Assembly: GCA_001916035.1 (NCBI GenBank)
Contig: MNRQ01000023.1
Span: forward strand, 8,850 to 72,849
Length of the DNA: 64,000 nt
From: Clostridium sp. 27_14
GTDB lineage: Bacteria > Bacillota > Clostridia > TANB77 > CAG-508
Direction: 5' to 3'
Positions 1-55,237 of the stretch are shown piece after piece. Both the position numbers and the translations under genes were made by a program. Every line of letters starts with the position of its first letter. Positions within the stretch are counted from its first letter, which is position 1. The notes below the pieces were generated by a model. The model made no database searches, was not told the origin of the DNA, and worked only from the letters and a program-made list of their open reading frames with translations.

Positions 1-633
1 CTAGAAGAATACAACAAAGTATTAGAAGAAGTAAATAAACAATTAGTAGAACTAGCAAAAAATGAAATAGACACAGCATATATAGGTGGAGAATTAGCAT
101 GGCCAGTACCAGGCTATACAAAAATAAGTTCACCTTATGGAATGAGAACACACCCAATAACAAAAGTATACAAATTACATACAGGTGTTGACATATCAGC
201 ACCAATGGGAGCAAACTTTGTAGCAGCAAATGACGGAATAGTAATAAAAGCAGAATATAACATAGCTTATGGAAAAATGGTAGTAATAGACCATGGAGGA
301 GGAATATCAACACTATATGCACATGGATCAGAATTTTTAGTAAAAGCAGGAGACACTGTAAAAAGAAATCAAGCAGTTTTAAAAGTAGGTTCAACAGGAT
401 ATTCTACAGGAGCACATGCACACTTTGAAGTAAGAAAAAACGGAAAAGTTACAAGTCCAATGCCATACATAACAAATGGAATAGTACCAAATTCAGAAGA
501 AGACAAAGCACAAAGTGAACAAGACAGTACAATAAATACAACCAATACATCAAACACAGTAGAAGCAACAAATACAACAGCAGAAAATAAAACAGAAAAT
601 TCAGAAACAAAACAGCAAACAACAACACAATAA
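1..633 (+). CDS. M23/LytM-family peptidoglycan metalloendopeptidase, 3' part (5' end outside window)
   Basis: Frame 1 is open from base 1 (LEEYNKVLEEVNKQLVELAK... upstream of listed Met142). M23 motifs HTGVDISAP and GSTGYSTGAHAHFEV. T/N/Q-rich tail. Confidence 0.85.
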   Translation, partial: LEEYNKVLEEVNKQLVELAKNEIDTAYIGGELAWPVPGYTKISSPYGMRTHPITKVYKLHTGVDISAPMGANFVAANDGIVIKAEYNIAYGKMVVIDHGGGISTLYAHGSEFLVKAGDTVKRNQAVLKVGSTGYSTGAHAHFEVRKNGKVTSPMPYITNGIVPNSEEDKAQSEQDSTINTTNTSNTVEATNTTAENKTENSETKQQTTTQ

Positions 634-4130: not shown

Positions 4131-4607
4131 ATGGAAGAAAAAGAAGTAATACTTACACAAGAAGGACATGATAACTTAGAAAAAGAATTAAATTATTTAA
4201 AAACAGAAAAAAGAGCAGAAATAGCAGAAAGAATAAAAGTAGCATTAGGATTTGGAGACTTATCAGAAAACTCAGAATATGACGAAGCAAAAAATGCACA
4301 AGCAGAAAACGAAGTAAAAATAGCAGAATTAGAAAACAAATTAAGACATGCAAAAATAATTGATGAAAAAGAAATAGACACAGAAACAGTACAAATAGGA
4401 AATGTAGTAAAAGTGCATGACTTAGAATTCGACGAAAAAGTAGAATACACAATAGTAGGATCAACAGAAGTAGATCTTACAGAAAACAAAATATCAAATG
4501 AATCTCCACTAGGAGAAGCATTATTAGGAGCAAAAAAAGGAAATACAGTTGAAGTAAATGCACCAGCAGGAATAATGAAATACAAAATATTATCAATAAC
4601 AAAATAA
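4131..4607 (+). CDS. greA: Transcription elongation factor GreA
   Basis: 158 aa. [17 protein letters not shown]...[16 protein letters not shown] coiled-coil finger; C-terminal FKBP-like [22 protein letters not shown]. Confidence 0.95.
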
Positions 4608-5213: not shown

Positions 5214-7319
5214 ATGTTTAAAAGTTATGAAACAGAACTAGCAGGAAGAAAGCTAGTAATAGAAACAGGAAAAATGGCAGAACTATCAAACGGAAGTGTA
5301 ATAGTAAGGTATGGAGAAACTGTAGTAATGGTAAATGTAACAGCATCAAAAGAACCAAGAGAAGGAATAGACTTTTTCCCACTATCAGTAGACTACGAAG
5401 AAAAATTATATGCAGTAGGAAAAATACCAGGATCATTCCAAAAAAGAGAAGGAAAACCAGCAGACAAAGCAATACTAACATCAAGAGCAATAGACAGACC
5501 ACTAAGACCACTATTCCCAAAAGACTTCAGAAATGATGTAGTAGTTGTTGCAACAGTATTATCAGTAGAACAAGACAACTCACCAGAAGTAGCAGCAATG
5601 ATAGGAGCATCAGCAGCACTATCAATATCAGACATACCATTTGGAGGACCAACAGCAGCAGTAAATGTAGGATTAGTAAATGGAGAAATAGTAATAAATC
5701 CAACAGAAGAACAAAGAAAAATATCAGACTTAACACTTACAGTAGCAGGAACAGAACAAAAAATAGCAATGATAGAAGCAGGAGCAAACGAAGTATCAAA
5801 TGAAGTAATGCTAGAAGCAATCAAAAAAGGACACGAAGAAATAAAGAAAATCTGCAAATTTATAGAAAATATGAAAGAAGAAATAGGAAAACCAAAATTT
5901 GAATACAAATCATTTGCAGTAGACCACGATTTATATGAATATATAGCAGAAAAATTTACAGAAGAAATGAAAGAAAAAGTACAAGAAAAAGATAAAGAAA
6001 CAAGAGACAATAACATAGCAGAATTAACAGAAAAAATATCAAACGACTATGCAGAAAAATTTGGAGAAGAAGCATTTGAAGAAAACAAACAACAAATAGG
6101 AGAAGCAATATATAAATTAGAAAAAAAATGTGTAAGAGACATGATATTTTATGAGCATAAAAGAGTAGACGGAAGAAAAATAGACGAAATAAGGCCATTA
6201 TCATGCGAAATAGACCTATTACCACGAGTACATGGAAGTGCACTATTCACAAGAGGACAAACACAAGTATTATCAGTAACAACATTAGGAATGATAAGTG
6301 AAGAGCAAACATTAGACGGATTAGATAACGAAGAATCAAAAAGATATATGCACCAATACAATTTTCCAGCATATAGCGTAGGAGAAGCAAGACCATCAAG
6401 AGGACCAGGAAGAAGAGAAATAGGACATGGAGCATTAGCAGAAAAAGCATTAGTACCTGTATTACCATCAAAAGAAGAATTTCCTTATGCAATAAGAGTA
6501 GTATCAGAAGTATTATCATCAAATGGATCAACATCACAAGCAAGTATATGTGGAAGCACATTATCATTAATGGCAGCAGGAGTACCAATAAAAAGACCAG
6601 TAGCAGGAATATCAACAGGATTAGTAACAAATCCAGAAGACGAAAACGACTATGTAATGTTAACAGACATACAAGGACTAGAAGACTTTTTTGGAGATAT
6701 GGACTTCAAAGTAGGAGGAACAGAAAAAGGAATAACAGCAATACAAGTAGATATCAAAATAGATGGATTAACTTATGACATAATAGCAGAAGCATTTGAA
6801 AGAACAAAAGTAGCAAGACAATACATACTAGACAAAATAATGAAACCAGTAATAAGCGAACCACGAACAGAAATATCAAAATATGCACCACGTATAGTAT
6901 CAACACAAATAAAAGTTGAAAAAATCAAAGATGTAATAGGACCTGGAGGAAAAGTAATAAATAAAATAATAGAAGAAACAGGAGTAAAAATAGACATAGA
7001 AGAAGATGGAAAAGTATTTATATATTCATCAGATTCAGAGAAAGCAGTAGAAGCTTTAGATATGATAGAAGACATTGTTAGAGATGTAGAAGTTGGTGGA
7101 ATCTATTATGGAGAAGTAACAAAAATAATGCCATTCGGAGCATTTGTAGATTTAGGATGTGGAGGAAAAGAAGGTTTAGTACACATATCAAAAATCTCAA
7201 ATGAAAGAATAAAAAATGTAGAAGATGTATTACATATAGGACAAAAAGTAACAGTAAAAGTAACAGACATAGACGACCAAGACAGAATAAACCTAACAAT
7301 GAAAGACCTAAAAAACTAA
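5214..7319 (+). CDS. pnp: Polyribonucleotide nucleotidyltransferase (PNPase)
   Basis: 701 aa. Two RNase PH domains (e.g. FFGDMDFKVGGT), KH (GPGGKVINKIIEETG) and S1 (GEVTKIMPFGAFVDL) domains. Confidence 0.97.
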   Translation: MFKSYETELAGRKLVIETGKMAELSNGSVIVRYGETVVMVNVTASKEPREGIDFFPLSVDYEEKLYAVGKIPGSFQKREGKPADKAILTSRAIDRPLRPLFPKDFRNDVVVVATVLSVEQDNSPEVAAMIGASAALSISDIPFGGPTAAVNVGLVNGEIVINPTEEQRKISDLTLTVAGTEQKIAMIEAGANEVSNEVMLEAIKKGHEEIKKICKFIENMKEEIGKPKFEYKSFAVDHDLYEYIAEKFTEEMKEKVQEKDKETRDNNIAELTEKISNDYAEKFGEEAFEENKQQIGEAIYKLEKKCVRDMIFYEHKRVDGRKIDEIRPLSCEIDLLPRVHGSALFTRGQTQVLSVTTLGMISEEQTLDGLDNEESKRYMHQYNFPAYSVGEARPSRGPGRREIGHGALAEKALVPVLPSKEEFPYAIRVVSEVLSSNGSTSQASICGSTLSLMAAGVPIKRPVAGISTGLVTNPEDENDYVMLTDIQGLEDFFGDMDFKVGGTEKGITAIQVDIKIDGLTYDIIAEAFERTKVARQYILDKIMKPVISEPRTEISKYAPRIVSTQIKVEKIKDVIGPGGKVINKIIEETGVKIDIEEDGKVFIYSSDSEKAVEALDMIEDIVRDVEVGGIYYGEVTKIMPFGAFVDLGCGGKEGLVHISKISNERIKNVEDVLHIGQKVTVKVTDIDDQDRINLTMKDLKN

Positions 7320-8419: not shown

Positions 8420-8457
8420 AAATAAAATAAAATTGAGCAATGCAAAAAATGCACATA

Positions 8458-8527
8458 AAGAACAAAAGAGGACATTAATAGCATTTGCACACTAATCAGA
8501 ACATTTTAAAGTCCGCGTCTTTGAACG
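8458..8527. repeat. About 70-nt intergenic repeat element, copy A
   Basis: AAGAACAAAAGAGGACATTAATAGCATTTGCAC...AGAACATTTTAAAGTCCGCGTCTTTGAACG; near-identical to 48748-48816. Confidence 0.85.
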
Positions 8528-9741: not shown

Positions 9742-11235
9742 ATGAATATAATTGATGAGAATTTTGTAGAAAAATCAAAAAAAGAAAAAACAAAAATGTC
9801 CAAAATAATACTAATTATAATAGCAATATTAGTAATAGCAATAATAGGAATAATTATAGCACTAGGATATATAGACAATGCACAACTAAAAGTAACAGTT
9901 GACGGACAATTACAAGAAAAAGTAAAAGATATGCTAGTATTTGACGGAGATACAGTATATATATCTATTAGAGATATAGCAAGTTATGTAGGATATCAAA
10001 GTTATAGTGGAGACTATGCAGAAAGATCAGAAGCCAAAAACAAATGCTATATACAAAATGACGACGAAATAGCAAATTTTGTACTAGGATCAAACAAAAT
10101 ATATAAATTAGAAACACAAAAAACAAATTCAGATTACACATATTTTTATGCTAAAAAACCAGTAAAAGCAATAAACGGAAAATTATATATATCATCAGAT
10201 GGATTCCAAGAAGCATTCAATTCAAGTTTTATATATAACCAAGACACAAAACGCATAAAAATATATACAATGAATTATTTAATATCAAGTTACCAACAAA
10301 CAGTACTAGACAAAGGATTTGCTGAAATGAGTAGCGAATTTCACAACGAAAAATCGATATTTGAAGAAAGACTAGTAGTACAAAAAGACAAAAAACAACT
10401 AGGAGTAATAGACTTAAAAGGAAACACAATAATAGAACCAAAATACGAAGAAATAACATATATACCAGAAACAGGCGACTTCTTTGCAAAAAGTAACGGA
10501 AAAGTAGGAATAATCTCTAAAGATGGAACAATGAAAGTACAAATATTATATGATAGCCTAAACCTAATGGACAAAGACGCAGGAATATATGAAGCACAAA
10601 GAGAAGGAAAATATGGAATAATAGATGTAAAAGGAAATATAAAATTATATATAGAAAATGATGCAATAGGACTAGATATTTCAAAATTTGAAAAAAATGA
10701 CATACGTAACAAATATTTACTAGTAGACAACCTAATACCAGTAAAGAAAAATGATTTATGGGGACTAGTAGACAAAACTGGAAAAACAATAGTAGACTTC
10801 AAATATGACAGTTTAGGATATATAGCATCAAGTAACAAAGACGCATTAAACTTATTAGTAATACCAAACTATAACATGATAGTAACATGCAAAGACAAAA
10901 AATATGGACTAATAAACTCATCAGGAGAAGAAAAATTCCCAACAAGAGCAGACGACATTTATATGGTAATAGACTCAGGAACAAAATACTACTATTTGAA
11001 TTTTGAAGATCAAAGATATGATGTAGAAAAATGGCTAGACTCAATAGGAGTAAAAGCAGTAAAAAATAATGAAACAAAAACCACAACAAGTAGCTCAAGT
11101 GAAACAACAAACGAAACTTCAAACACAACGCAAAACAATAGCCAAACACAAGAAACAACACAACAAGACGATACATCATCACAACAAGAAACATCTGAAA
11201 ATTCAGAACAAAATAGTGAAACATCAAACCAATAA
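9742..11235 (+). CDS. Membrane-anchored WG-repeat protein with T/S/Q-rich tail
   Basis: GGGGGA RBS before ATG 9742. One TM. Repeated K(Y/W)G(I/L)(I/V)D..G motifs (KYGIIDVKGN, LWGLVDKTGK, KYGLINSSGE). Confidence 0.65.
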   Translation: MNIIDENFVEKSKKEKTKMSKIILIIIAILVIAIIGIIIALGYIDNAQLKVTVDGQLQEKVKDMLVFDGDTVYISIRDIASYVGYQSYSGDYAERSEAKNKCYIQNDDEIANFVLGSNKIYKLETQKTNSDYTYFYAKKPVKAINGKLYISSDGFQEAFNSSFIYNQDTKRIKIYTMNYLISSYQQTVLDKGFAEMSSEFHNEKSIFEERLVVQKDKKQLGVIDLKGNTIIEPKYEEITYIPETGDFFAKSNGKVGIISKDGTMKVQILYDSLNLMDKDAGIYEAQREGKYGIIDVKGNIKLYIENDAIGLDISKFEKNDIRNKYLLVDNLIPVKKNDLWGLVDKTGKTIVDFKYDSLGYIASSNKDALNLLVIPNYNMIVTCKDKKYGLINSSGEEKFPTRADDIYMVIDSGTKYYYLNFEDQRYDVEKWLDSIGVKAVKNNETKTTTSSSSETTNETSNTTQNNSQTQETTQQDDTSSQQETSENSEQNSETSNQ

Positions 11236-16447: not shown

Positions 16448-17416
16448 ATGTATAATGAACCACAAGAAATGTTAAATACACCAAAGATAAAAGTAATAGG
16501 AGTAGGAGGAGCTGGAAACAACGCAGTAAATAGAATGATAGAAGATAATATAAAAGGAGTCACATATTATCTATTAAATACAGAAACAGGAACATTAAAA
16601 AGAGCAAAAACTAAAAATATATTGCAAATAGGAATAGAAACAACAAAAGGATTAGGAGCAGGAGCAAACGAAAATGTAGGAGAAAGAGCAGCAATAGAAA
16701 ATAAAGAACAAATAAAAGACATAGTAAGAGGAGCAGACATGGTATTCATAGTCGCTGGAATGGGTGGAGGAACAGGAACAGGTGCAGCACCAGTTGTAGC
16801 AGAAATCGCAAAAGAAATGGGAATACTAACAATAGGAGTTGTAACAAAACCATTTATGTTTGAAGGCAAAGCCAGAAAACTAAGAGCAGACTATGGAACA
16901 CAAAAATTAAAAGAAAATGTAGATGATCTAATTGTAATATTAAATGACAAACTATTAAAAACAACAGACACTAAAATCACATTAAATTCAGCATTTTCAT
17001 TAGCTGACGAAGTTTTAGAACAAGCAATCTCAGGGATAACAGATTTACTAACAACAATAGGAGAAGTAAACATAGACTTTGCAGACATATCTACTACAGT
17101 AAGATATAGAGGAAAAGCATATATGGGAGTTGGAAAAGCATCAGGAGAAAAGAAAGTAGAAGAAGCAGTAAGACAAGCAATTGCAAACCCACTTACAGAA
17201 AGCAAAATAAATGGAGCAAAAGGAGTTATATTTAATGTTAAAGGTGATGAAAGCTTAAGTCTACTAGAAATAAACAGTGCAATAGCAATAATCAATGACC
17301 AAATAAGTGAAGATGCAAATGTTATATTTGGAACCGTTATTGATAACAATATGAAAGACAATGTAAGTGTAACTATAATAGCAACAGGCGTGGAAGAAAC
17401 AATAGAAGTAAAATAA
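16448..17416 (+). CDS. FtsZ/tubulin-family GTPase, short form lacking C-terminal linker and tail peptide
   Basis: GVGGAGNNAVNRM, GLGAGANENVG, GMGGGTGTGAAPVVAEIAKE, T7-loop NIDFADI. The protein ends at ...IIATGVEETIEVK (322 aa). Confidence 0.85.
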   Translation: MYNEPQEMLNTPKIKVIGVGGAGNNAVNRMIEDNIKGVTYYLLNTETGTLKRAKTKNILQIGIETTKGLGAGANENVGERAAIENKEQIKDIVRGADMVFIVAGMGGGTGTGAAPVVAEIAKEMGILTIGVVTKPFMFEGKARKLRADYGTQKLKENVDDLIVILNDKLLKTTDTKITLNSAFSLADEVLEQAISGITDLLTTIGEVNIDFADISTTVRYRGKAYMGVGKASGEKKVEEAVRQAIANPLTESKINGAKGVIFNVKGDESLSLLEINSAIAIINDQISEDANVIFGTVIDNNMKDNVSVTIIATGVEETIEVK

Positions 17417-17537
17417 AAAAGTTAAAATTAAACTACAACTCAAAACAACTTTGATAAGCCCATAAAACAAAAGTTATAACAAAAATATAAAAAATGAATA
17501 AAAATGACTAAAATAGTTGTAAAAAAAATAAAAAATT

Positions 17538-17573
17538 GATATACTTATAATGTTAAATAAGTATATCATTTTT
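17538..17573 (+). terminator. Hairpin plus T-tract in ftsZ-like/asp23 intergenic region
   Basis: Perfect 11-bp stem GATATACTTAT/ATAAGTATATC followed by ATTTTT. Confidence 0.5.
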
Positions 17574-17652
17574 GTATATAAAAGAAACTTTTAATAAATA
17601 CAAAATGAATATATTAAAAGAAAGTTAAGCTTTCTAAAAAGGAGGAATTAGT

Positions 17653-18123
17653 ATGAGTGAAGAAAATCAAGAAAAAATAGAAGAAAGAAAAGAAAACGAA
17701 AATACATCAGAAATAATAGAAACAGAAACAACAGAAGAAAATGAAGGAATACAAATATCAAATGATGTAATAGCAGTAATAGCAGGAGTTGCAGTATCAG
17801 AAGTACAAGGAGTATCATCAATGGCAGGAGGATTTGCAGGAGGAATATCAGAAGTACTAAGTGGAAAGAAAAACTTAGCAAAAGGAATAAAAGTAGATAA
17901 AGAAGAAAATAAAGTAAAAATAGATGTAAACATAATTGTAGAATATGGTACAAGAATACCAGATGTAGCATTTGAAATACAAAATAGAGTAAAAACATCT
18001 GTAGAAAATATGACAGGACTAAAAGTTGAAGAAGTAAATGTACATGTACAAGGCGTAAACACAAATACAGTTAGCAAAGAAGAAACAGAACAAAATGAAG
18101 AAGAAAAAGAACAAGCAGAATAA
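17653..18123 (+). CDS. asp23: Asp23/Gls24 family envelope stress protein
   Basis: ISNDVIAVIAGVAVSEVQGVSSM...VNVHVQGV; acidic tails. Confidence 0.9.
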   Translation: MSEENQEKIEERKENENTSEIIETETTEENEGIQISNDVIAVIAGVAVSEVQGVSSMAGGFAGGISEVLSGKKNLAKGIKVDKEENKVKIDVNIIVEYGTRIPDVAFEIQNRVKTSVENMTGLKVEEVNVHVQGVNTNTVSKEETEQNEEEKEQAE

Positions 18124-30823: not shown

Positions 30824-31732
30824 ATGGATTTTAAAGAAGAACTACAAACATATCAATCAATAATAAATAATGAATTACAAAAATATTTAAGAAAAGAAAA
30901 AGGACTAGAAGAAATATTACACCAATCAATGGAATACAGCCTAATGGCAGGAGGAAAAAGGCTAAGACCAATATTAGTATTAGCAACGTATAAACTTATA
31001 AAAAATGAAAATTATGAAAAATGTCTGCCTTATGCTGTAGCTATAGAAATGGTACACAACTTTTCACTTATACATGATGACTTACCAGGAATTGATAATG
31101 ACGATTTTAGACATGGAAAGCCAACAAACCATAAAAAATTTAATGAAGCAACAGCAATACTAGCAGGAGATGCTTTATTAAACAATTCTTATATAATAAT
31201 TAGTAAAGATTTAATAAAAAGTAAAGAAAAGTTGAAAAATGATAGCACTGAATTAAAAGCAAAATTACAAATTTTTAATGAATTCTCTATAGCAATTGAT
31301 AAAATGATAGCAGGAGAATATATAGATACAGAATTTGAAGGAAAAAATATATCAATAGAAGATTTAGAATATATTCATGAAAATAAGACAGGAGCACTAT
31401 TAACATTATGTGTTAGAATGGGAGCAATACTAGCAAATGCAACACAAGAAGATTTGCAGAATCTTACAAACTATTCTAAAAAAATAGGATTAGCTTTTCA
31501 AGTAAAAGACGATATCTTATCAGAAGAAGGAGACGAAAAAAAATTAGGAAAACCAGTTGGAAATGACAAAGAAAGAGGAAAATGTACTTATGTTTCTAAA
31601 TATGGATTAGATGGAGCAAAAGACATATTAAACGACTTAACAGAACACGCAATAGAATCATTAAAAAAATATGGAAAAGAAGCAGAATTTTTAAAAAGAC
31701 TAGCAGAATATATACGTGACAGACAAAAATAA
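30824..31732 (+). CDS. ispA: Polyprenyl (farnesyl/geranylgeranyl) diphosphate synthase
   Basis: GGKRLRP, first DDxxD motif (LIHDDLPGIDNDDFRHG), second motif FQVKDDILS. The start could be 30815. Confidence 0.85.
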   Translation: MDFKEELQTYQSIINNELQKYLRKEKGLEEILHQSMEYSLMAGGKRLRPILVLATYKLIKNENYEKCLPYAVAIEMVHNFSLIHDDLPGIDNDDFRHGKPTNHKKFNEATAILAGDALLNNSYIIISKDLIKSKEKLKNDSTELKAKLQIFNEFSIAIDKMIAGEYIDTEFEGKNISIEDLEYIHENKTGALLTLCVRMGAILANATQEDLQNLTNYSKKIGLAFQVKDDILSEEGDEKKLGKPVGNDKERGKCTYVSKYGLDGAKDILNDLTEHAIESLKKYGKEAEFLKRLAEYIRDRQK

Positions 31733-48507: not shown

Positions 48508-48582
48508 AGGGGTATAGTGTCAATGGTAGCACATCGGTCTCCAAAACCGCCTGTGAGGGTTCGAATCCTTCTACCCCTGCCA
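48508..48582 (+). tRNA. trnW: tRNA-Trp (anticodon CCA), CCA end encoded
   Basis: Manual cloverleaf: acceptor AGGGGTA/TACCCCT, anticodon loop CTCCAAA, T-loop TTCGAAT, 75 nt. One U-C mismatch at the top of the anticodon stem. Confidence 0.9.
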
Positions 48583-48590
48583 TAAGAAAA

Positions 48591-48626
48591 AGCCTTGATT
48601 TCAACTATAATCAAGACTTTTTTATT
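48591..48626 (+). terminator. tRNA-Trp terminator
   Basis: AGCCTTGATT-loop-AATCAAGACT plus TTTTTTATTTTT. Confidence 0.8.
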
Positions 48627-48747
48627 TTTGCTTTTTAGTTTGTTTTATTCGTTTTATCCTTTTTTTCGTTAAAAAGGTAGTCAGAAATATACTCAATGTT
48701 TTTATAATCAATCAACAAAAACATTACAATAAAGACCTAATTTTTCA

Positions 48748-48816
48748 AAGAACAAAAGCGAACATTAATAACATTTGCACTATTTAGAACATTTTAAAGT
48801 CCGCGTCTTTGTTCGT
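48748..48816. repeat. About 70-nt intergenic repeat element, copy B
   Basis: AAGAACAAAAGCGAACATTAATAACATTTGCAC...AGAACATTTTAAAGTCCGCGTCTTTGTTCG. Confidence 0.85.
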
Positions 48817-48855
48817 GCACAGAGAAATACAGTAATATAAAAAATTGAAAAAAGT

Positions 48856-48884
48856 GTTGATTTTTTTTAGTAACTCTAGTATAA
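48856..48884 (+). promoter_or_regulatory. Promoter TTGATT-17-TATAAT of candidate antitoxin sRNA
   Basis: TTGATT 48856-48861, TATAAT 48879-48884. Confidence 0.6.
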
Positions 48885-48890
48885 TATCTA

Positions 48891-49012
48891 TAAGGAAATA
48901 AAGATATATTTAATATCATTTTATTTCTCCTTTGCAAAGGTATTAAATGTATGTATAACCTTTAAATCAAGGGAATAATAAAAGACTAGAGGCGCAAACT
49001 CTAGTCTTTTTG
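48891..49012 (+). ncRNA. Candidate antisense sRNA (type I antitoxin-like), about 120 nt
   Basis: Bounded by a consensus promoter and a perfect terminator; no credible ORF. Carries ATTAAATGTATGTAT (48942-48956), complementary to the peptide mRNA. Confidence 0.5.
48980..49010. terminator. Bidirectional terminator shared by convergent sRNA and peptide gene
   Basis: Perfect 12-bp stem AAAAGACTAGAG-gcgcaaa-CTCTAGTCTTTT with A-run upstream and T-run downstream. Confidence 0.85.
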
Positions 49013-49014
49013 TT

Positions 49015-49092
49015 TTAGTCGAACTTCTCAAGTATCTTAAGTATAAGTACTAAAACCATAACTTTAAGAATTAAATGTATGTATTTTCCCAT
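49015..49092 (-). CDS. 25-aa hydrophobic peptide MGKYIHLILKVMVLVLILKILEKFD (candidate type I toxin)
   Basis: AAAGGAGGTGA SD 9 nt upstream of ATG 49092; single predicted TM helix with charged ends; own promoter. Not in the ORF track because it is too short. Confidence 0.55.
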   Translation of the reverse strand: MGKYIHLILKVMVLVLILKILEKFD

Positions 49093-49129
49093 AAATCTTC
49101 ACCTCCTTTTGGGAGTAGGGAATGAGTAG

Positions 49130-49158
49130 ATTATACAACAAAATATAATATAAGACAA
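49130..49158 (-). promoter_or_regulatory. Promoter TTGTCT-17-TATAAT of peptide gene
   Basis: Minus strand: TTGTCT (49158-49153), TATAAT (49135-49130). Confidence 0.55.
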
Positions 49159-49231
49159 TATAAAAAATAAAAAAATAAGATTAACTACTTACTATTTAAT
49201 AACGATTTTTATAAAAAATTATTAATAAGTA

Positions 49232-49260
49232 TTGCAGATATATTTTTTTTGTGGTAATAT
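49232..49260 (+). promoter_or_regulatory. Promoter TTGCAG-17-(TGg)TAATAT for glyQS leader
   Basis: TTGCAG 49232-49237, TAATAT 49255-49260 with extended TG. Confidence 0.55.
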
Positions 49261-49266
49261 AATACA

Positions 49267-49492
49267 AAGAAAAATAAAATATTAAAGATTACAATGAAAA
49301 AGAAAAAGTACGGATTTTATGAATAGAGAGCAAGGAATGGTGGAAGCCTAGCCATAAATAAGTATGGGGAGCTTTGGAGTAATCAAAAGAAATTAAGGTG
49401 CTTAAAATTTTTAAAAATTTTAAGAATTAGGGTGGAAACGCGGAAAAAAACTTTCGTCCCTAGCTATAAAGGCTAGGTGTCGAAAGTTTTTT
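49267..49492 (+). promoter_or_regulatory. T-box riboswitch leader, Gly specifier
   Basis: AGAGAG 49325; GGGGA run (49366-49370) after AGUA in the specifier region; T-box AATTAGGGTGGAAACGCGG (49425-49443); terminator AAACTTTCG..CCTAGC/GCTAGG..CGAAAGTTTTTT (49447-49492). Confidence 0.8.
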
Positions 49493-52183: not shown

Positions 52184-52792
52184 GTGCCAAAAGAGACATT
52201 TTTAAAATTGCCAGAAGAAAAGAAAAATAAAATAATAAAAGCAGCAAAAAAAGAATTTGAAAGAGTACCATTTGAACAAACATCAATAAAAAACATAGTA
52301 GAAGATGCAGAAATTGCAAGAGGAAGTTTTTATCAATATTTTGAGAGTAAATACGGGTATATTTTAAATATCCATTTTAAAGAAATGAATGAACAAATGC
52401 AAGAAAACATTATAAAAGCAAAAGGAGACATATTCCAAATATTCATATCAATGTATGACTGTGTAGACAATAATTTAATAAAAAATGAAGATATGGAATT
52501 TTATAAAAAAATATTTAACAATTTAAAAACAAGTGAAGACAGCAAAATCTTCAAAAAATTTGTAGAAGAAAAACCGAAAAAAATCAAAGACTTTTATGAA
52601 TATATAGACACATCAAATTTAAAAATAAACACAAAAGAAGAATTTGAAATTGTAGAAAAAATTTTATTTACAATAACAACAAAAGCAATAGTAATGAGGT
52701 TCAAATATGACTCCAAAGAAAATGCAAGAGAAAATTACCTAAAACAAATTGAATATTTAAAATATGGCATAGTAAAAAATATTGAAAAATAA
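52184..52792 (+). CDS. TetR/AcrR family transcriptional regulator
   Basis: GTG 52184 six nt after GGTGGTGA gives MPKETFLKLPEEKKNKIIKAAKKEF...TSIKNIVEDAEIARGSFYQYF (TetR HTH). Confidence 0.85.
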   Translation: MPKETFLKLPEEKKNKIIKAAKKEFERVPFEQTSIKNIVEDAEIARGSFYQYFESKYGYILNIHFKEMNEQMQENIIKAKGDIFQIFISMYDCVDNNLIKNEDMEFYKKIFNNLKTSEDSKIFKKFVEEKPKKIKDFYEYIDTSNLKINTKEEFEIVEKILFTITTKAIVMRFKYDSKENARENYLKQIEYLKYGIVKNIEK

Positions 52793-52840
52793 CAAAAGCG
52801 AACATTAATAACAAATGCACTTATTAAAAACCATTAAAAG
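52790..52840. repeat. Intergenic repeat element, truncated copy C (5' half only)
   Basis: TAACAAAAGCGAACATTAATAACAAATGCAC... overlaps the tetR stop and lacks the GTCCGCGTCTTTG arm. Confidence 0.7.
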
Positions 52841-52855: not shown

Positions 52856-55237
52856 ATGTTAAAAGTATTAAAAAAATTAAAAGAATCATGGGTATCTGTA
52901 ATAGCTATAGTAATATTATTAGCAATCCAAGCAGCAGGAGACTTAACATTACCAGATTACACATCAAAAATAGTTAATATAGGAATCCAAAATGGTGGAA
53001 TTGAAAATGTCGCACCAGAAGTTATAAGAAAAAGTGAAATGGAAAACCTATTAATTTTCACAGAAGAGGATGATAAAATTTTGTCATTATATGAAGAAAT
53101 ATCAAAGGAAAATTTAGACAATAAAGAATACGAAAAACTAGTAAAAAAATATCCAGCACTTGAAAACGAAGCATTATACAAAATAAAAAAAGTAAATAAA
53201 AATGAACAAAATGAATTAAACAGCATAATGGCAAAACCATTAATGATTATAAGTATGTTAGAAAATGAAGAAACCTCAGAACAAATGAAGGAACAAATGT
53301 TAGAACAAATTACAAAAAATCAAGAAATGCAAAATACACCAATATCACAAAATGCACAATCAACACAAGAAGAACAAATAGCACAAGCAAAAATAAAAGA
53401 ACAACAAATAAAAGCAATGCAAAACATGAGTTTAATTGAAATAATAAAACAAAGGCCAAAAGAACAATTAGAAAAAATGCTAGAAAATATAAATCAAAAA
53501 ATTAATGATATGCAAGAAAGCATATTAGAACAAGCAGCTATACAAGAAGTAAAAAATGAGTATAAAGCAATAGGAATGGACACGAACCAAATACAAAATC
53601 AATATATAATAATAGCAGGACTAAAAATGTTAGGAATATCATTTATAATCATGGTATCTGCAATTTCAATTATGTGTTTATCAGCAAGAGTTGCAGCAAG
53701 ACTAGCAAAAACTTTAAGAGAAAAAGTATTCAAAAAAGTATTAAGTTTTTCAAATAAAGAATTTTCTGAATATAGTACAGCATCATTAATCACACGTTCA
53801 ACAAATGATATACAACAAATACAAGGATTAATAGCAATTCTATTTAGAGTATTAGTATATGCACCAATTATTGGTATAGGAGGATTTTTAAGAGTTTTAA
53901 GACAAAGTGACAACTCAATGGCATGGATTATAGGAATAGCAATATTAGCAATATTATTTGTAGTAGGAACACTATTTATAATAGCAATGCCAAGATTTAA
54001 AAAATTACAACAACTAATAGACAAACTAAATTTAGTAGCAAGAGAAATTTTAACAGGATTACCAGTAATAAGAGCATTTAACACAGAGAAAAAAGAAGAA
54101 AAAAGATTTGACACAGCAAATATAGAATTAACAAAAACTAATTTATTTGTAAATAGAGCAATGAGTTTTATGATGCCAACATTAATGTTAATAATGAATG
54201 GAATATCATTATTAATAGTATGGGTTGGAGCAAATGGAATTGATAATGGAACAATGCAAGTAGGAAATATGATGGCATTTATCCAATACACAATGCAAAT
54301 AGTAATGAGCTTTTTAATGATATCAATGGTATCAATAATGCTACCAAGAGCATCTGTATCAGCAAATCGTATAAATGAAATATTAGAAACAGATGAAGTA
54401 ATAAAAGATAGTAAAGAACCAATAAAATTAAATCCAAATAAAAAAGGTTTAGTAGAATTCAAAAATGTATCATTCAGATATCCAGATAGTGACGAAGAAG
54501 TATTAAGTGATATAACATTCACAGCAGAGCCAGGAAAAACAACAGCAATTATAGGAAGTACAGGTAGTGGAAAATCAACAATAGTAAATTTAATACCAAG
54601 ATTTTATGACATAACATCAGGAAATCTTTTAATAGATGGAGTAGATATAAAAAATATAGCAAATAAAGATTTAAGAAAAATAGTAGGATTTGTACCACAA
54701 AAAGGAATATTGTTTTCTGGAACAATAGAATCAAACATAAAATATGGAAATCCAGAAATGTCAGATGAACAAATGATAGAAGCAGCAGAAATAGCACAAG
54801 CAACAGAATTTATAGAATCAAAACCAGAAAAATATAAAGAACCAATAGCACAAGGAGGAAGCAATGTATCTGGAGGGCAAAAACAAAGACTATCAATAGC
54901 AAGAGCAATAGCAATAGATCCAGAAATACTAGTATTTGATGATAGTTTTTCAGCATTAGACTTTAAAACAGATAGCACATTAAGAGCAGAACTTGCTAAA
55001 AAAACAAAAAACAAAACAGTAATTATTGTTGCACAAAGAATTAATACAATATTAAATGCAGACCAAATCATAGTATTAGAAGATGGAAAAGTTGTAGGTA
55101 AAGGAACACATGAAGAATTAATAAAAACAAATGAAACATATAAACAAATAGCATTATCACAACTATCAGAAGAAGAGTTAAATATAAAAGACTTAAACAA
55201 TAAAACAAATGTAGAAGGAGGGGAAAAACATGAGTAA
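52856..55237 (+). CDS. ABC exporter, fused permease/ATPase, with about 195-aa insertion after TM1
   Basis: 793 aa. Six-TM exporter fold signature (LITRSTNDIQQIQ), Walker A GSTGSGKST, signature VSGGQKQR, Walker B ILVFDD. Confidence 0.9.
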   Translation: MLKVLKKLKESWVSVIAIVILLAIQAAGDLTLPDYTSKIVNIGIQNGGIENVAPEVIRKSEMENLLIFTEEDDKILSLYEEISKENLDNKEYEKLVKKYPALENEALYKIKKVNKNEQNELNSIMAKPLMIISMLENEETSEQMKEQMLEQITKNQEMQNTPISQNAQSTQEEQIAQAKIKEQQIKAMQNMSLIEIIKQRPKEQLEKMLENINQKINDMQESILEQAAIQEVKNEYKAIGMDTNQIQNQYIIIAGLKMLGISFIIMVSAISIMCLSARVAARLAKTLREKVFKKVLSFSNKEFSEYSTASLITRSTNDIQQIQGLIAILFRVLVYAPIIGIGGFLRVLRQSDNSMAWIIGIAILAILFVVGTLFIIAMPRFKKLQQLIDKLNLVAREILTGLPVIRAFNTEKKEEKRFDTANIELTKTNLFVNRAMSFMMPTLMLIMNGISLLIVWVGANGIDNGTMQVGNMMAFIQYTMQIVMSFLMISMVSIMLPRASVSANRINEILETDEVIKDSKEPIKLNPNKKGLVEFKNVSFRYPDSDEEVLSDITFTAEPGKTTAIIGSTGSGKSTIVNLIPRFYDITSGNLLIDGVDIKNIANKDLRKIVGFVPQKGILFSGTIESNIKYGNPEMSDEQMIEAAEIAQATEFIESKPEKYKEPIAQGGSNVSGGQKQRLSIARAIAIDPEILVFDDSFSALDFKTDSTLRAELAKKTKNKTVIIVAQRINTILNADQIIVLEDGKVVGKGTHEELIKTNETYKQIALSQLSEEELNIKDLNNKTNVEGGEKHE

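Follow-up and report, generated by a model that had tools for sequence, protein, structure and literature searches.

Does the spacer between the tRNA-Trp gene and the glyQS T-box leader of Clostridium sp. 27_14 hold a toxin-antitoxin (TA) system of type I, and if so, of what kind? The spacer lies in a 64,000-nucleotide (nt) stretch of contig MNRQ01000023.1, the whole of which was analysed and is called the window here. A sequence-only reading had proposed that a gene for a 25-residue hydrophobic peptide and a gene for an antisense RNA converge in this spacer on one shared terminator, with complementarity near the 5' end of the peptide mRNA, as in the enterococcal par system. Comparison with 39 other cassettes upholds this arrangement. 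The locus is almost certainly a conserved peptide-gene/antisense-RNA cassette, and it probably functions as a par-type type I TA system, judging from the comparison of sequences and from predicted RNA pairing.

The cassette and its relatives

The cassette is carried by a spacer, stated as 1.27 kb, that is flanked by tRNA-Trp (48508-48582) and the glyQS T-box leader (49285-49464). Its elements, in window coordinates, are given below, where ORF stands for open reading frame, SD for Shine-Dalgarno sequence, and DRa and DRb for the two direct repeats.

48844..49174 (~330 bp), both strands: whole cassette, taken as the BLASTN extent of homology to copies elsewhere
48857..48885, plus strand: putative antitoxin-RNA promoter TTGATT-17-TATAAT, with 10/12 consensus matches
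48892..49017, plus strand: predicted antisense (antitoxin) RNA of ~125 nt, both ends predicted
48942..48956, plus strand: DRb copy in the antitoxin gene, an exact 15-mer; the RNA is perfectly complementary to ORF nt +9 to +23
48963..48968, plus strand: DRb extension TAAATC, matching 49092-49097 (the A of the ATG and 5 nt upstream)
48970..48976, plus strand: DRa copy AGGGAAT, complementary to the mRNA of the peptide at its first nucleotides
48980..49010, both strands: bidirectional intrinsic terminator common to both units, with an A-run and a T-run on opposite sides
49015..49092, minus strand: 25-codon ORF of the candidate toxin, MGKYIHLILKVMVLVLILKILEKFD; ATG at 49092, stop at 49017-49015
49070..49084, minus strand: DRb copy within the ORF, from the third base of codon 3 to the second base of codon 8
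49099..49109, minus strand: SD AAAGGAGGTGA, predicted to pair with CUCC at 49115-49112
49117..49123, minus strand: DRa (AUUCCCU) at the 5' terminus predicted for the peptide mRNA; GGGAA in codons 1-3 is a second predicted partner
49130..49158, minus strand: putative peptide-mRNA promoter TTGTCT-17-TATAAT; a promoter-like site occupies the equivalent place in 38/40 cassettes

The minus-strand unit lies exactly where the sequence-only reading had placed its promoter, SD, ATG, 25-codon ORF and stop, and the same is true of the terminator, a perfect 12-bp stem (48980-48991 / 48999-49010) closed by a 7-nt loop. The plus-strand TTGATT-17-TATAAT site is also present, at 48857-48885 and not at 48856-48884 as first given, a difference of 1 nt. 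The 15-nt exact direct repeat ATTAAATGTATGTAT was recovered at both of its proposed positions, 48942-48956 and 49070-49084, the latter corresponding to ORF nt +9 to +23. Two features had escaped the earlier reading. The 15-mer repeat continues imperfectly to TAAATC (49092-49097 / 48963-48968), so that the complementarity reaches the start codon, and a second short repeat, ATTCCCT at 49123-49117, has its copy at 48976-48970.

By themselves, the features of the window are weakly above chance. The region contains 9 promoter-like sites compared with 9.2 expected in shuffles and 1 terminator-like site compared with 0.5 expected, and BLAST against the window gives the 15-mer repeat an E-value of 0.035. 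Their significance comes from conservation in 39 other non-identical cassettes, which together with the window's own make up a family set of 40 distinct cassettes after duplicates and truncated copies were removed. A second copy within the window was not found. The closest relatives by BLASTN are a chromosomal locus (L151), aligned over window 48844-49174 at 75% identity, and a phage locus (L008), aligned over 48849-49172 at 73%.

Temperate phages are one source of the family. A BLASTN search of phage genomes returned one match, which spans exactly the proposed module with 72.6% identity (E 2e-39), in Bajarodcaudo virus 4 (PQ006095), a complete temperate genome with an integrase and a CI repressor. 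This cassette encodes a 25-codon ORF, MREYIKLLLKVIVLVLIYKILKMFD, with the same SD, both promoters and the same terminator stem, and its direct repeat stands in the same two places as in the window with a different sequence. The genome (PQ006095.1, L170) contains three diverged cassettes, at ~9950-10250, ~17380-17700 and 30920-31245, whose peptide ORFs are unannotated. Over the third of them, the deposited record has two 37-aa "hypothetical proteins" (XHH63620, XHH63621) called in the wrong frame. Another viral contig, IMGVR_UViG_3300006213_002330, carries two cassettes (L045 and L047). A search of IMG/VR with the terminator stem gave 40 loci, about 22 of which are family members; distinct cassettes on IMG/VR viral contigs number 16. 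This DNA pattern recovered far more viral loci than peptide patterns did; the latter yielded 2 loci only in viral contigs, with confirmation by tblastn using the 25-aa query.

Further members were sought in GTDB representative genomes with a loose pattern of stop-codon context plus stem; the host range obtained is a lower bound. Among the matches listed there were at least about 35 cassettes, at least 22 of them distinct with adequate flanks, and all came from Clostridia or Clostridium sp. genomes, MAGs included, obtained from the guts of humans, mice, rabbits, goats and zoo animals. Of the 119 stretches among the matches listed, about two-thirds had matched by chance in unrelated phyla, and none of those listed came from the species of the window. 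No homologue was found in the plasmid collection.

Predicted antisense pairing and folds

Beyond the terminator, every one of the 40 cassettes repeats two pieces of the toxin 5' region and omits the SD portion. DRa (4-12 nt, mean 7.2 nt) comprises the first nucleotides of the predicted mRNA, at -31 to -36 from the start, and its sequence varies between members. DRb is longer and in most cassettes has its first nucleotide between +5 and +18 of the ORF, while in several the match begins at -4/-3 or the pairing runs back over the start codon. The repeat reads ATACATACATTTAAT in the window, AATACATAAAATTATTC in L023, TTTATTACGTATCATC in L013 and TGGTTAAAACTAAT in L024, and it is matched within each cassette, the exact repeat averaging 12.2 nt for cognate partners versus 7.8 nt for non-cognate ones.

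To model the pairing, the toxin 5' region (-45 to +36) was submitted to RNAduplex together with the antisense segment, and pairs were called distant when their toxin 5' regions were <70% identical. Predicted energies were -33.5 ± 3.7 kcal/mol for cognate pairs, -20.2 ± 4.7 kcal/mol for distant non-cognate pairs and -15.7 kcal/mol with shuffled antisense sequences, and 30 of the 40 toxins have no distant antitoxin that equals the cognate one in pairing. The toxin and antitoxin of the window, for which this calculation had been suggested beforehand, gave -31.8 kcal/mol with the TAAATC extension included. The recognition sequences of the two RNAs vary together across the family, and we consider this modelled, cognate-specific complementarity the strongest single argument that the two RNAs interact.

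The predicted antisense RNAs are ~95-175 nt long across the family. In 37/40 cassettes, 64-144 nt separate the terminator from a convergent TTGnnn-16..18-TATAAT promoter beyond it. The earlier claim that the plus-strand RNA has no credible ORF holds for the whole family, in which no antisense RNA contains an ORF of more than 16 aa and no ORF is conserved.

In single-sequence folds, both RNAs are more stable than their shuffled counterparts. The window antisense RNA (48892-49017) has a minimum free energy (MFE) of -33.3 kcal/mol (z-score -5.5) and is predicted to form a 5' stem-loop, then a hairpin that presents the DRb complement as a 16-nt loop, and then the terminator. For the peptide mRNA of ~150 nt (49123-48975), with -37.4 kcal/mol and a z-score of -3.8, the predicted fold pairs 5' UUCCC with GGGAA of codons 1-3 and places a CUCC/GGAG hairpin over the SD. 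The masking recurs in the family, since in 34/40 5' regions the MFE fold has 80% or more of the SD paired.

A further SD, AAGGAGAAA, and ATG open a 41-codon ORF on the minus strand inside the antisense gene (48794-48919). This 41-aa ORF (48919..48794) was rejected as a second gene, as it is not conserved in relatives. SD-like GGAGG motifs recur at its site in many relatives, where the motif is more likely an arm of the antitoxin 5' hairpin or a CCUCC anti-SD in the antisense RNA.

The peptide, its likely role and its place among known systems

The 36 distinct peptides of the family are 21, 22, 25 or 26 aa long, and all members have a GGAGG-type SD 4-11 nt upstream of the ORF. They are strongly hydrophobic (mean grand average of hydropathy 1.34; 1.30 for the window peptide), contain no proline and end in a conserved I-[YL]-[KL]-I-L-[KE]-x-F-[DN], with only 4-5 residues ([KE]-x-F-D) after the hydrophobic stretch; the stop codon precedes the terminator stem by 3-12 nt. 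The peptide is best described as a single hydrophobic helix with charged ends and is presumed to be a membrane-active toxin.

In the mechanism that we propose, the minus strand would be transcribed into a ~150-nt mRNA for the 25-residue membrane-active peptide. Its 5' end would fold onto the start-codon region and the CUCC/GGAG hairpin would mask the SD; because of this back-folding and masking, intrinsically poor translation is expected. The plus strand would give a ~125-nt non-coding RNA, presumably made constitutively and less stable than the toxin mRNA. By pairing with the translation-initiation region of the toxin, the antisense RNA would block ribosome loading, probably followed by cleavage or decay of the duplex, perhaps with the involvement of an RNase. 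Upon loss of the cassette or prophage, or a stop of antitoxin transcription, decay of the labile antisense RNA would allow the peptide to be synthesised. The likeliest role would be prophage stabilisation, with chromosomal copies such as the window's then being domesticated or stranded. Type I TA systems of C. difficile prophages have been shown to stabilise their prophage (PMC7699646).

A masked SD, frequent weak starts (TTG or GTG in 15/40 cassettes) and an antisense RNA that covers the start codon are together a hallmark of a harmful product. They speak against the most durable alternative, which is that the antisense RNA tunes the level of a peptide that is no self-poison and acts instead in superinfection exclusion, membrane-protein modulation or lysis/lysogeny timing. 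The phage cassettes do lie at typical moron positions, the peptide is very short and without the Fst motif, and its strongly conserved K-x-F-D end could mean a specific partner; in addition, published work casts doubt on simple pore formation by several type I toxins (PMC7472228). A single phage with several diverged copies that do not cross-pair, however, fits addiction modules, and stand-alone copies exist in core intergenic regions. On balance, we regard a peptide of this other kind as rather unlikely and a toxin as the preferred reading.

Translation of the frame can be judged from its codons. For the 25-aa group, entropies at codon positions 1/2/3 are 0.68/0.35/1.15, and for the 21-aa group they are 0.84/0.32/1.17; synonymous codon differences exceed non-synonymous ones in both groups (431:368 and 469:373). 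The frame is open in 40/40 cassettes behind its strong SD, as the earlier reading's check in relatives required, while the other two frames contain stops in nearly all. In silico, the ORF shows coding-type selection. It could be objected that the minus-strand RNA is non-coding and that conservation reflects RNA-level or terminator/promoter-island constraint, given that the first 8 codons are constrained by RNA pairing and that the ORF, too short for gene callers, is unannotated in every record examined. Codons 10 to the end, however, are outside the pairing region, and there position 2 is almost invariant (0.07-0.32) and position 3 variable (~1.0), which makes an untranslated frame very improbable. 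A chance constellation of promoter-like hexamers, terminator and short ORF in AT-rich intergenic DNA, with which the shuffle counts and the E-value of the 15-mer alone would agree, is refuted by 40 non-identical homologous cassettes that keep every element with compensating changes between them, and its probability is negligible.

Several observations weigh against a par-type toxin-antitoxin function. Both the promoters and the ends of the transcripts are predicted from consensus sequences, and in DNA of 28% G+C matches of this kind are as frequent as expected by chance. The cassette sequence is identical in all carrier strains, so that comparing them cannot test for constraint within the species. 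Most Gram-positive type I toxins are longer than this peptide, which has neither PXXXG nor a long charged tail; for these reasons, toxicity should not be assumed by homology. An RNAalifold analysis of 22 antitoxins aligned with MAFFT recovered only the invariant terminator, because the antitoxin 5' parts are too divergent in length to align; the predicted antitoxin 5' hairpins rest on single-sequence folds, and no covariation is claimed for them. All members recovered have the identical terminator stem, but presence of the stem was a condition of both wide searches, and part of its invariance is due to ascertainment. Unrelated phage genes end in this hairpin, too.

Among characterised systems, the par locus of Enterococcus faecalis pAD1 (Fst/RNA I-RNA II), with which SprA1/SprA1as is grouped here, is the closest in design. 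In par of pAD1, convergent promoters drive two RNAs whose only overlap is a bidirectional terminator, DRa and DRb are oppositely transcribed, a 5' stem-loop masks the SD, and the 5' end is held in a helix (PMC7472228). According to T1TAdb, it is a peculiarity of the Fst/RNAII and SprA1 families that the two RNAs interact outside their overlap (PMC8594479). The cassette shares with these systems the convergent promoters and single bidirectional terminator, with an overlap that excludes the ORF, and the DRa/DRb repeats through which the antisense RNA would pair with the translation-initiation region outside the overlap. Its predicted folds likewise contain an SD-masking 5' hairpin and a sequestered mRNA 5' end, and par homologues, too, occur both on mobile elements and in core intergenic regions. 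The toxins, in contrast, are different. Fst has 33 aa versus 21-26 aa here, its toxicity depends on PXXXG, which is absent from these proline-free peptides, and a charged tail follows its transmembrane helix, whereas no extended charged C-terminal tail exists here. The antitoxins differ as well: RNA II is ~40 nt long (PMC7472228), compared with the ~95-175 nt and extra predicted 5' stem-loop of this family. The cassette has the regulatory features of par and lacks the toxin features of Fst; it appears to work like par, and membership in the Fst family is not demonstrated.

Other Firmicute systems were compared as well. The type I TA systems of C. difficile that lie in prophages or next to CRISPR arrays, CD0977.1-RCd11 and CD0956.2-RCd10 among them, resemble the cassettes in belonging to Clostridia, in being prophage-borne with several copies per prophage and in encoding small hydrophobic toxins that are mostly unannotated (PMC7699646, PMC6563280). 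Their toxins, set apart from ours by description only, have 34-53 aa and positively charged Lys-rich tails (PMC7699646). As of a 2019 review, experimentally validated clostridial type I TA systems were restricted to C. difficile (PMC6563280). The txpA/RatA, bsrG/SR4, bsrE/SR5 and yonT/SR6 systems of B. subtilis likewise consist of convergent, 3'-overlapping RNAs in Firmicute prophages (PMC8594479), but there the interaction site is an overlap between the antisense RNA and the 3' part of the ORF, whereas here the overlap is the terminator only and the main complementarity is 5'-proximal, through direct repeats.

The suspicion that the peptide belongs to an undescribed family is borne out by database searches. 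No Pfam or NCBIfam model matched the peptide at E <= 10, no PDB chain matched the family profile at E <= 10, no PHROG with a function and no PADLOC model matched, and the characteristic peptide strings had no match among ~8 million papers searched in full text. For the antitoxin of the window, Rfam gave no family at E <= 10 besides chance-level matches to unrelated families; at nine other loci no family reached E <= 0.1, and the RNA II-type model was not matched. This is apparently a new toxin/antitoxin family under the par design, and it may sit among the unnamed candidates of T1TAdb or of the supplement of Fozo et al. 2010.

A broader picture can be sketched tentatively, although we consider it unlikely to be right as a whole. 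The peptides, among the smallest Gram-positive type I toxins at 21-26 aa, might represent an independent lineage with an acquired or convergent par design. The cassette might be an autonomous selfish unit of ~330 bp that moves between phage moron sites and core intergenic regions, often by tRNA genes, and has no recombinase of its own. Co-evolution of the DRa/DRb "address" might keep copies in the same phage orthogonal, and the invariant I-L-K-x-F-D might point to a specific membrane target and not to a generic pore.

If the toxin-antitoxin reading is true, the family extends type I TA systems from C. difficile to many uncultured gut Clostridia and temperate phages, and the regulatory design of par also occurs with toxins other than those of the Fst type. 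The 40 natural toxin/antitoxin pairs with diverged recognition sequences would be a set for studies of antisense specificity and orthogonality, and very short toxins under tight RNA control are useful as counter-selection markers, as in C. difficile (PMC7699646). Peptides of 21-26 aa that are invisible to gene callers, and mis-annotated in one deposited phage genome, also mark an annotation gap. The interest is for RNA-regulation and phage biologists, and no new principle is involved.

Strain variation, genomic positions and neighbouring sequence

The accessory context first suggested by the neighbouring tRNA gene and repeat is confirmed by one strain allele without the segment and by relatives in prophages. 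The downstream glycyl-tRNA synthetase (GlyRS) is identical to OKZ77439.1 of the Clostridium sp. 27_14 MAG, which places the window in an uncultured Clostridium of the human gut and not in C. perfringens. The same protein is found on hundreds of gut-metagenome contigs; 24 of these contigs were read, and seven representatives with identical GlyRS (L001-L007) were compared. Six of the seven (L001, L003-L007) have the region, with a cassette identical to the window's. The remaining one, L002, which stands for 4/24 contigs, lacks window 48585-49271. The variable feature is as follows.

48585..49271, both strands: strain-variable 687-bp segment, containing the tRNA terminator, the dispersed repeat, the cassette and the glyQS promoter

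A species with GlyRS in the same 90% cluster (L173) has an unrelated region upstream of glyQS, with no cassette there. The segment is accessory, because the L002 allele lacks it and the glyQS upstream region of L173 is cassette-free. The junctions of the 687-bp indel show no clean target duplication. In L002 (2710-2713), the T-box leader begins 2-3 nt after tRNA-Trp with no terminator or promoter between, which implies that the tRNA and T-box/glyQS are co-transcribed in that allele. The T-box of the window (49285-49464) scores 74 bits compared with the Rfam gathering score of 93, with ~40 model positions missing, and is a short leader variant.

Across the family, the distribution is that of an accessory element, given the presence/absence allele within the species, the absence of the cassette from L173, the several diverged copies per phage and the weak starts noted above. 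Phage cassettes take moron-type positions, namely the gap that separates an ArpU/RinA-like late regulator from terminase, and sites next to the tape-measure gene and next to CI. Chromosomal cassettes occupy core intergenic regions, between rluD-like and mraZ genes (L151), between ttcA-like and tadA genes (L059) and, in the window, between tRNA-Trp and glyQS. In two viral contigs, tRNA genes lie ~250-300 nt from the cassette (L013 208-278; L025 2329-2497), echoing the tRNA-Trp of the window.

The terminator hairpin is more widespread than the cassette. About 18 of the 40 viral loci found with the stem were excluded as unrelated genes ending in the same hairpin. The stem, AAAGACTAGAG/CTCTAGTCTTT, ends at least 2 unrelated phage gene families (L011, L012, L016, L022; L014, L018, L021, L026, L027, L030, L031, L036, L037, L040, L048, L049), which is far above chance for 22 specified bases. 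It looks like a terminator that these phages share or that is mobile among them.

The 687-bp segment also includes one copy of a dispersed intergenic repeat of ~50-70 nt (AACAAAAGCGAACATTAATAACATTTGCACTATTTAGAACATTTTAAAG...) that has no Rfam match. This copy lies at 48747-48817 of the window, further ones are at 8457-8523 and 52791-52813, and the repeat also occurs in L003 at 4480-4545 and 6301-6354. One copy stands directly upstream of the SD of an ABC-transporter ORF at 52856.

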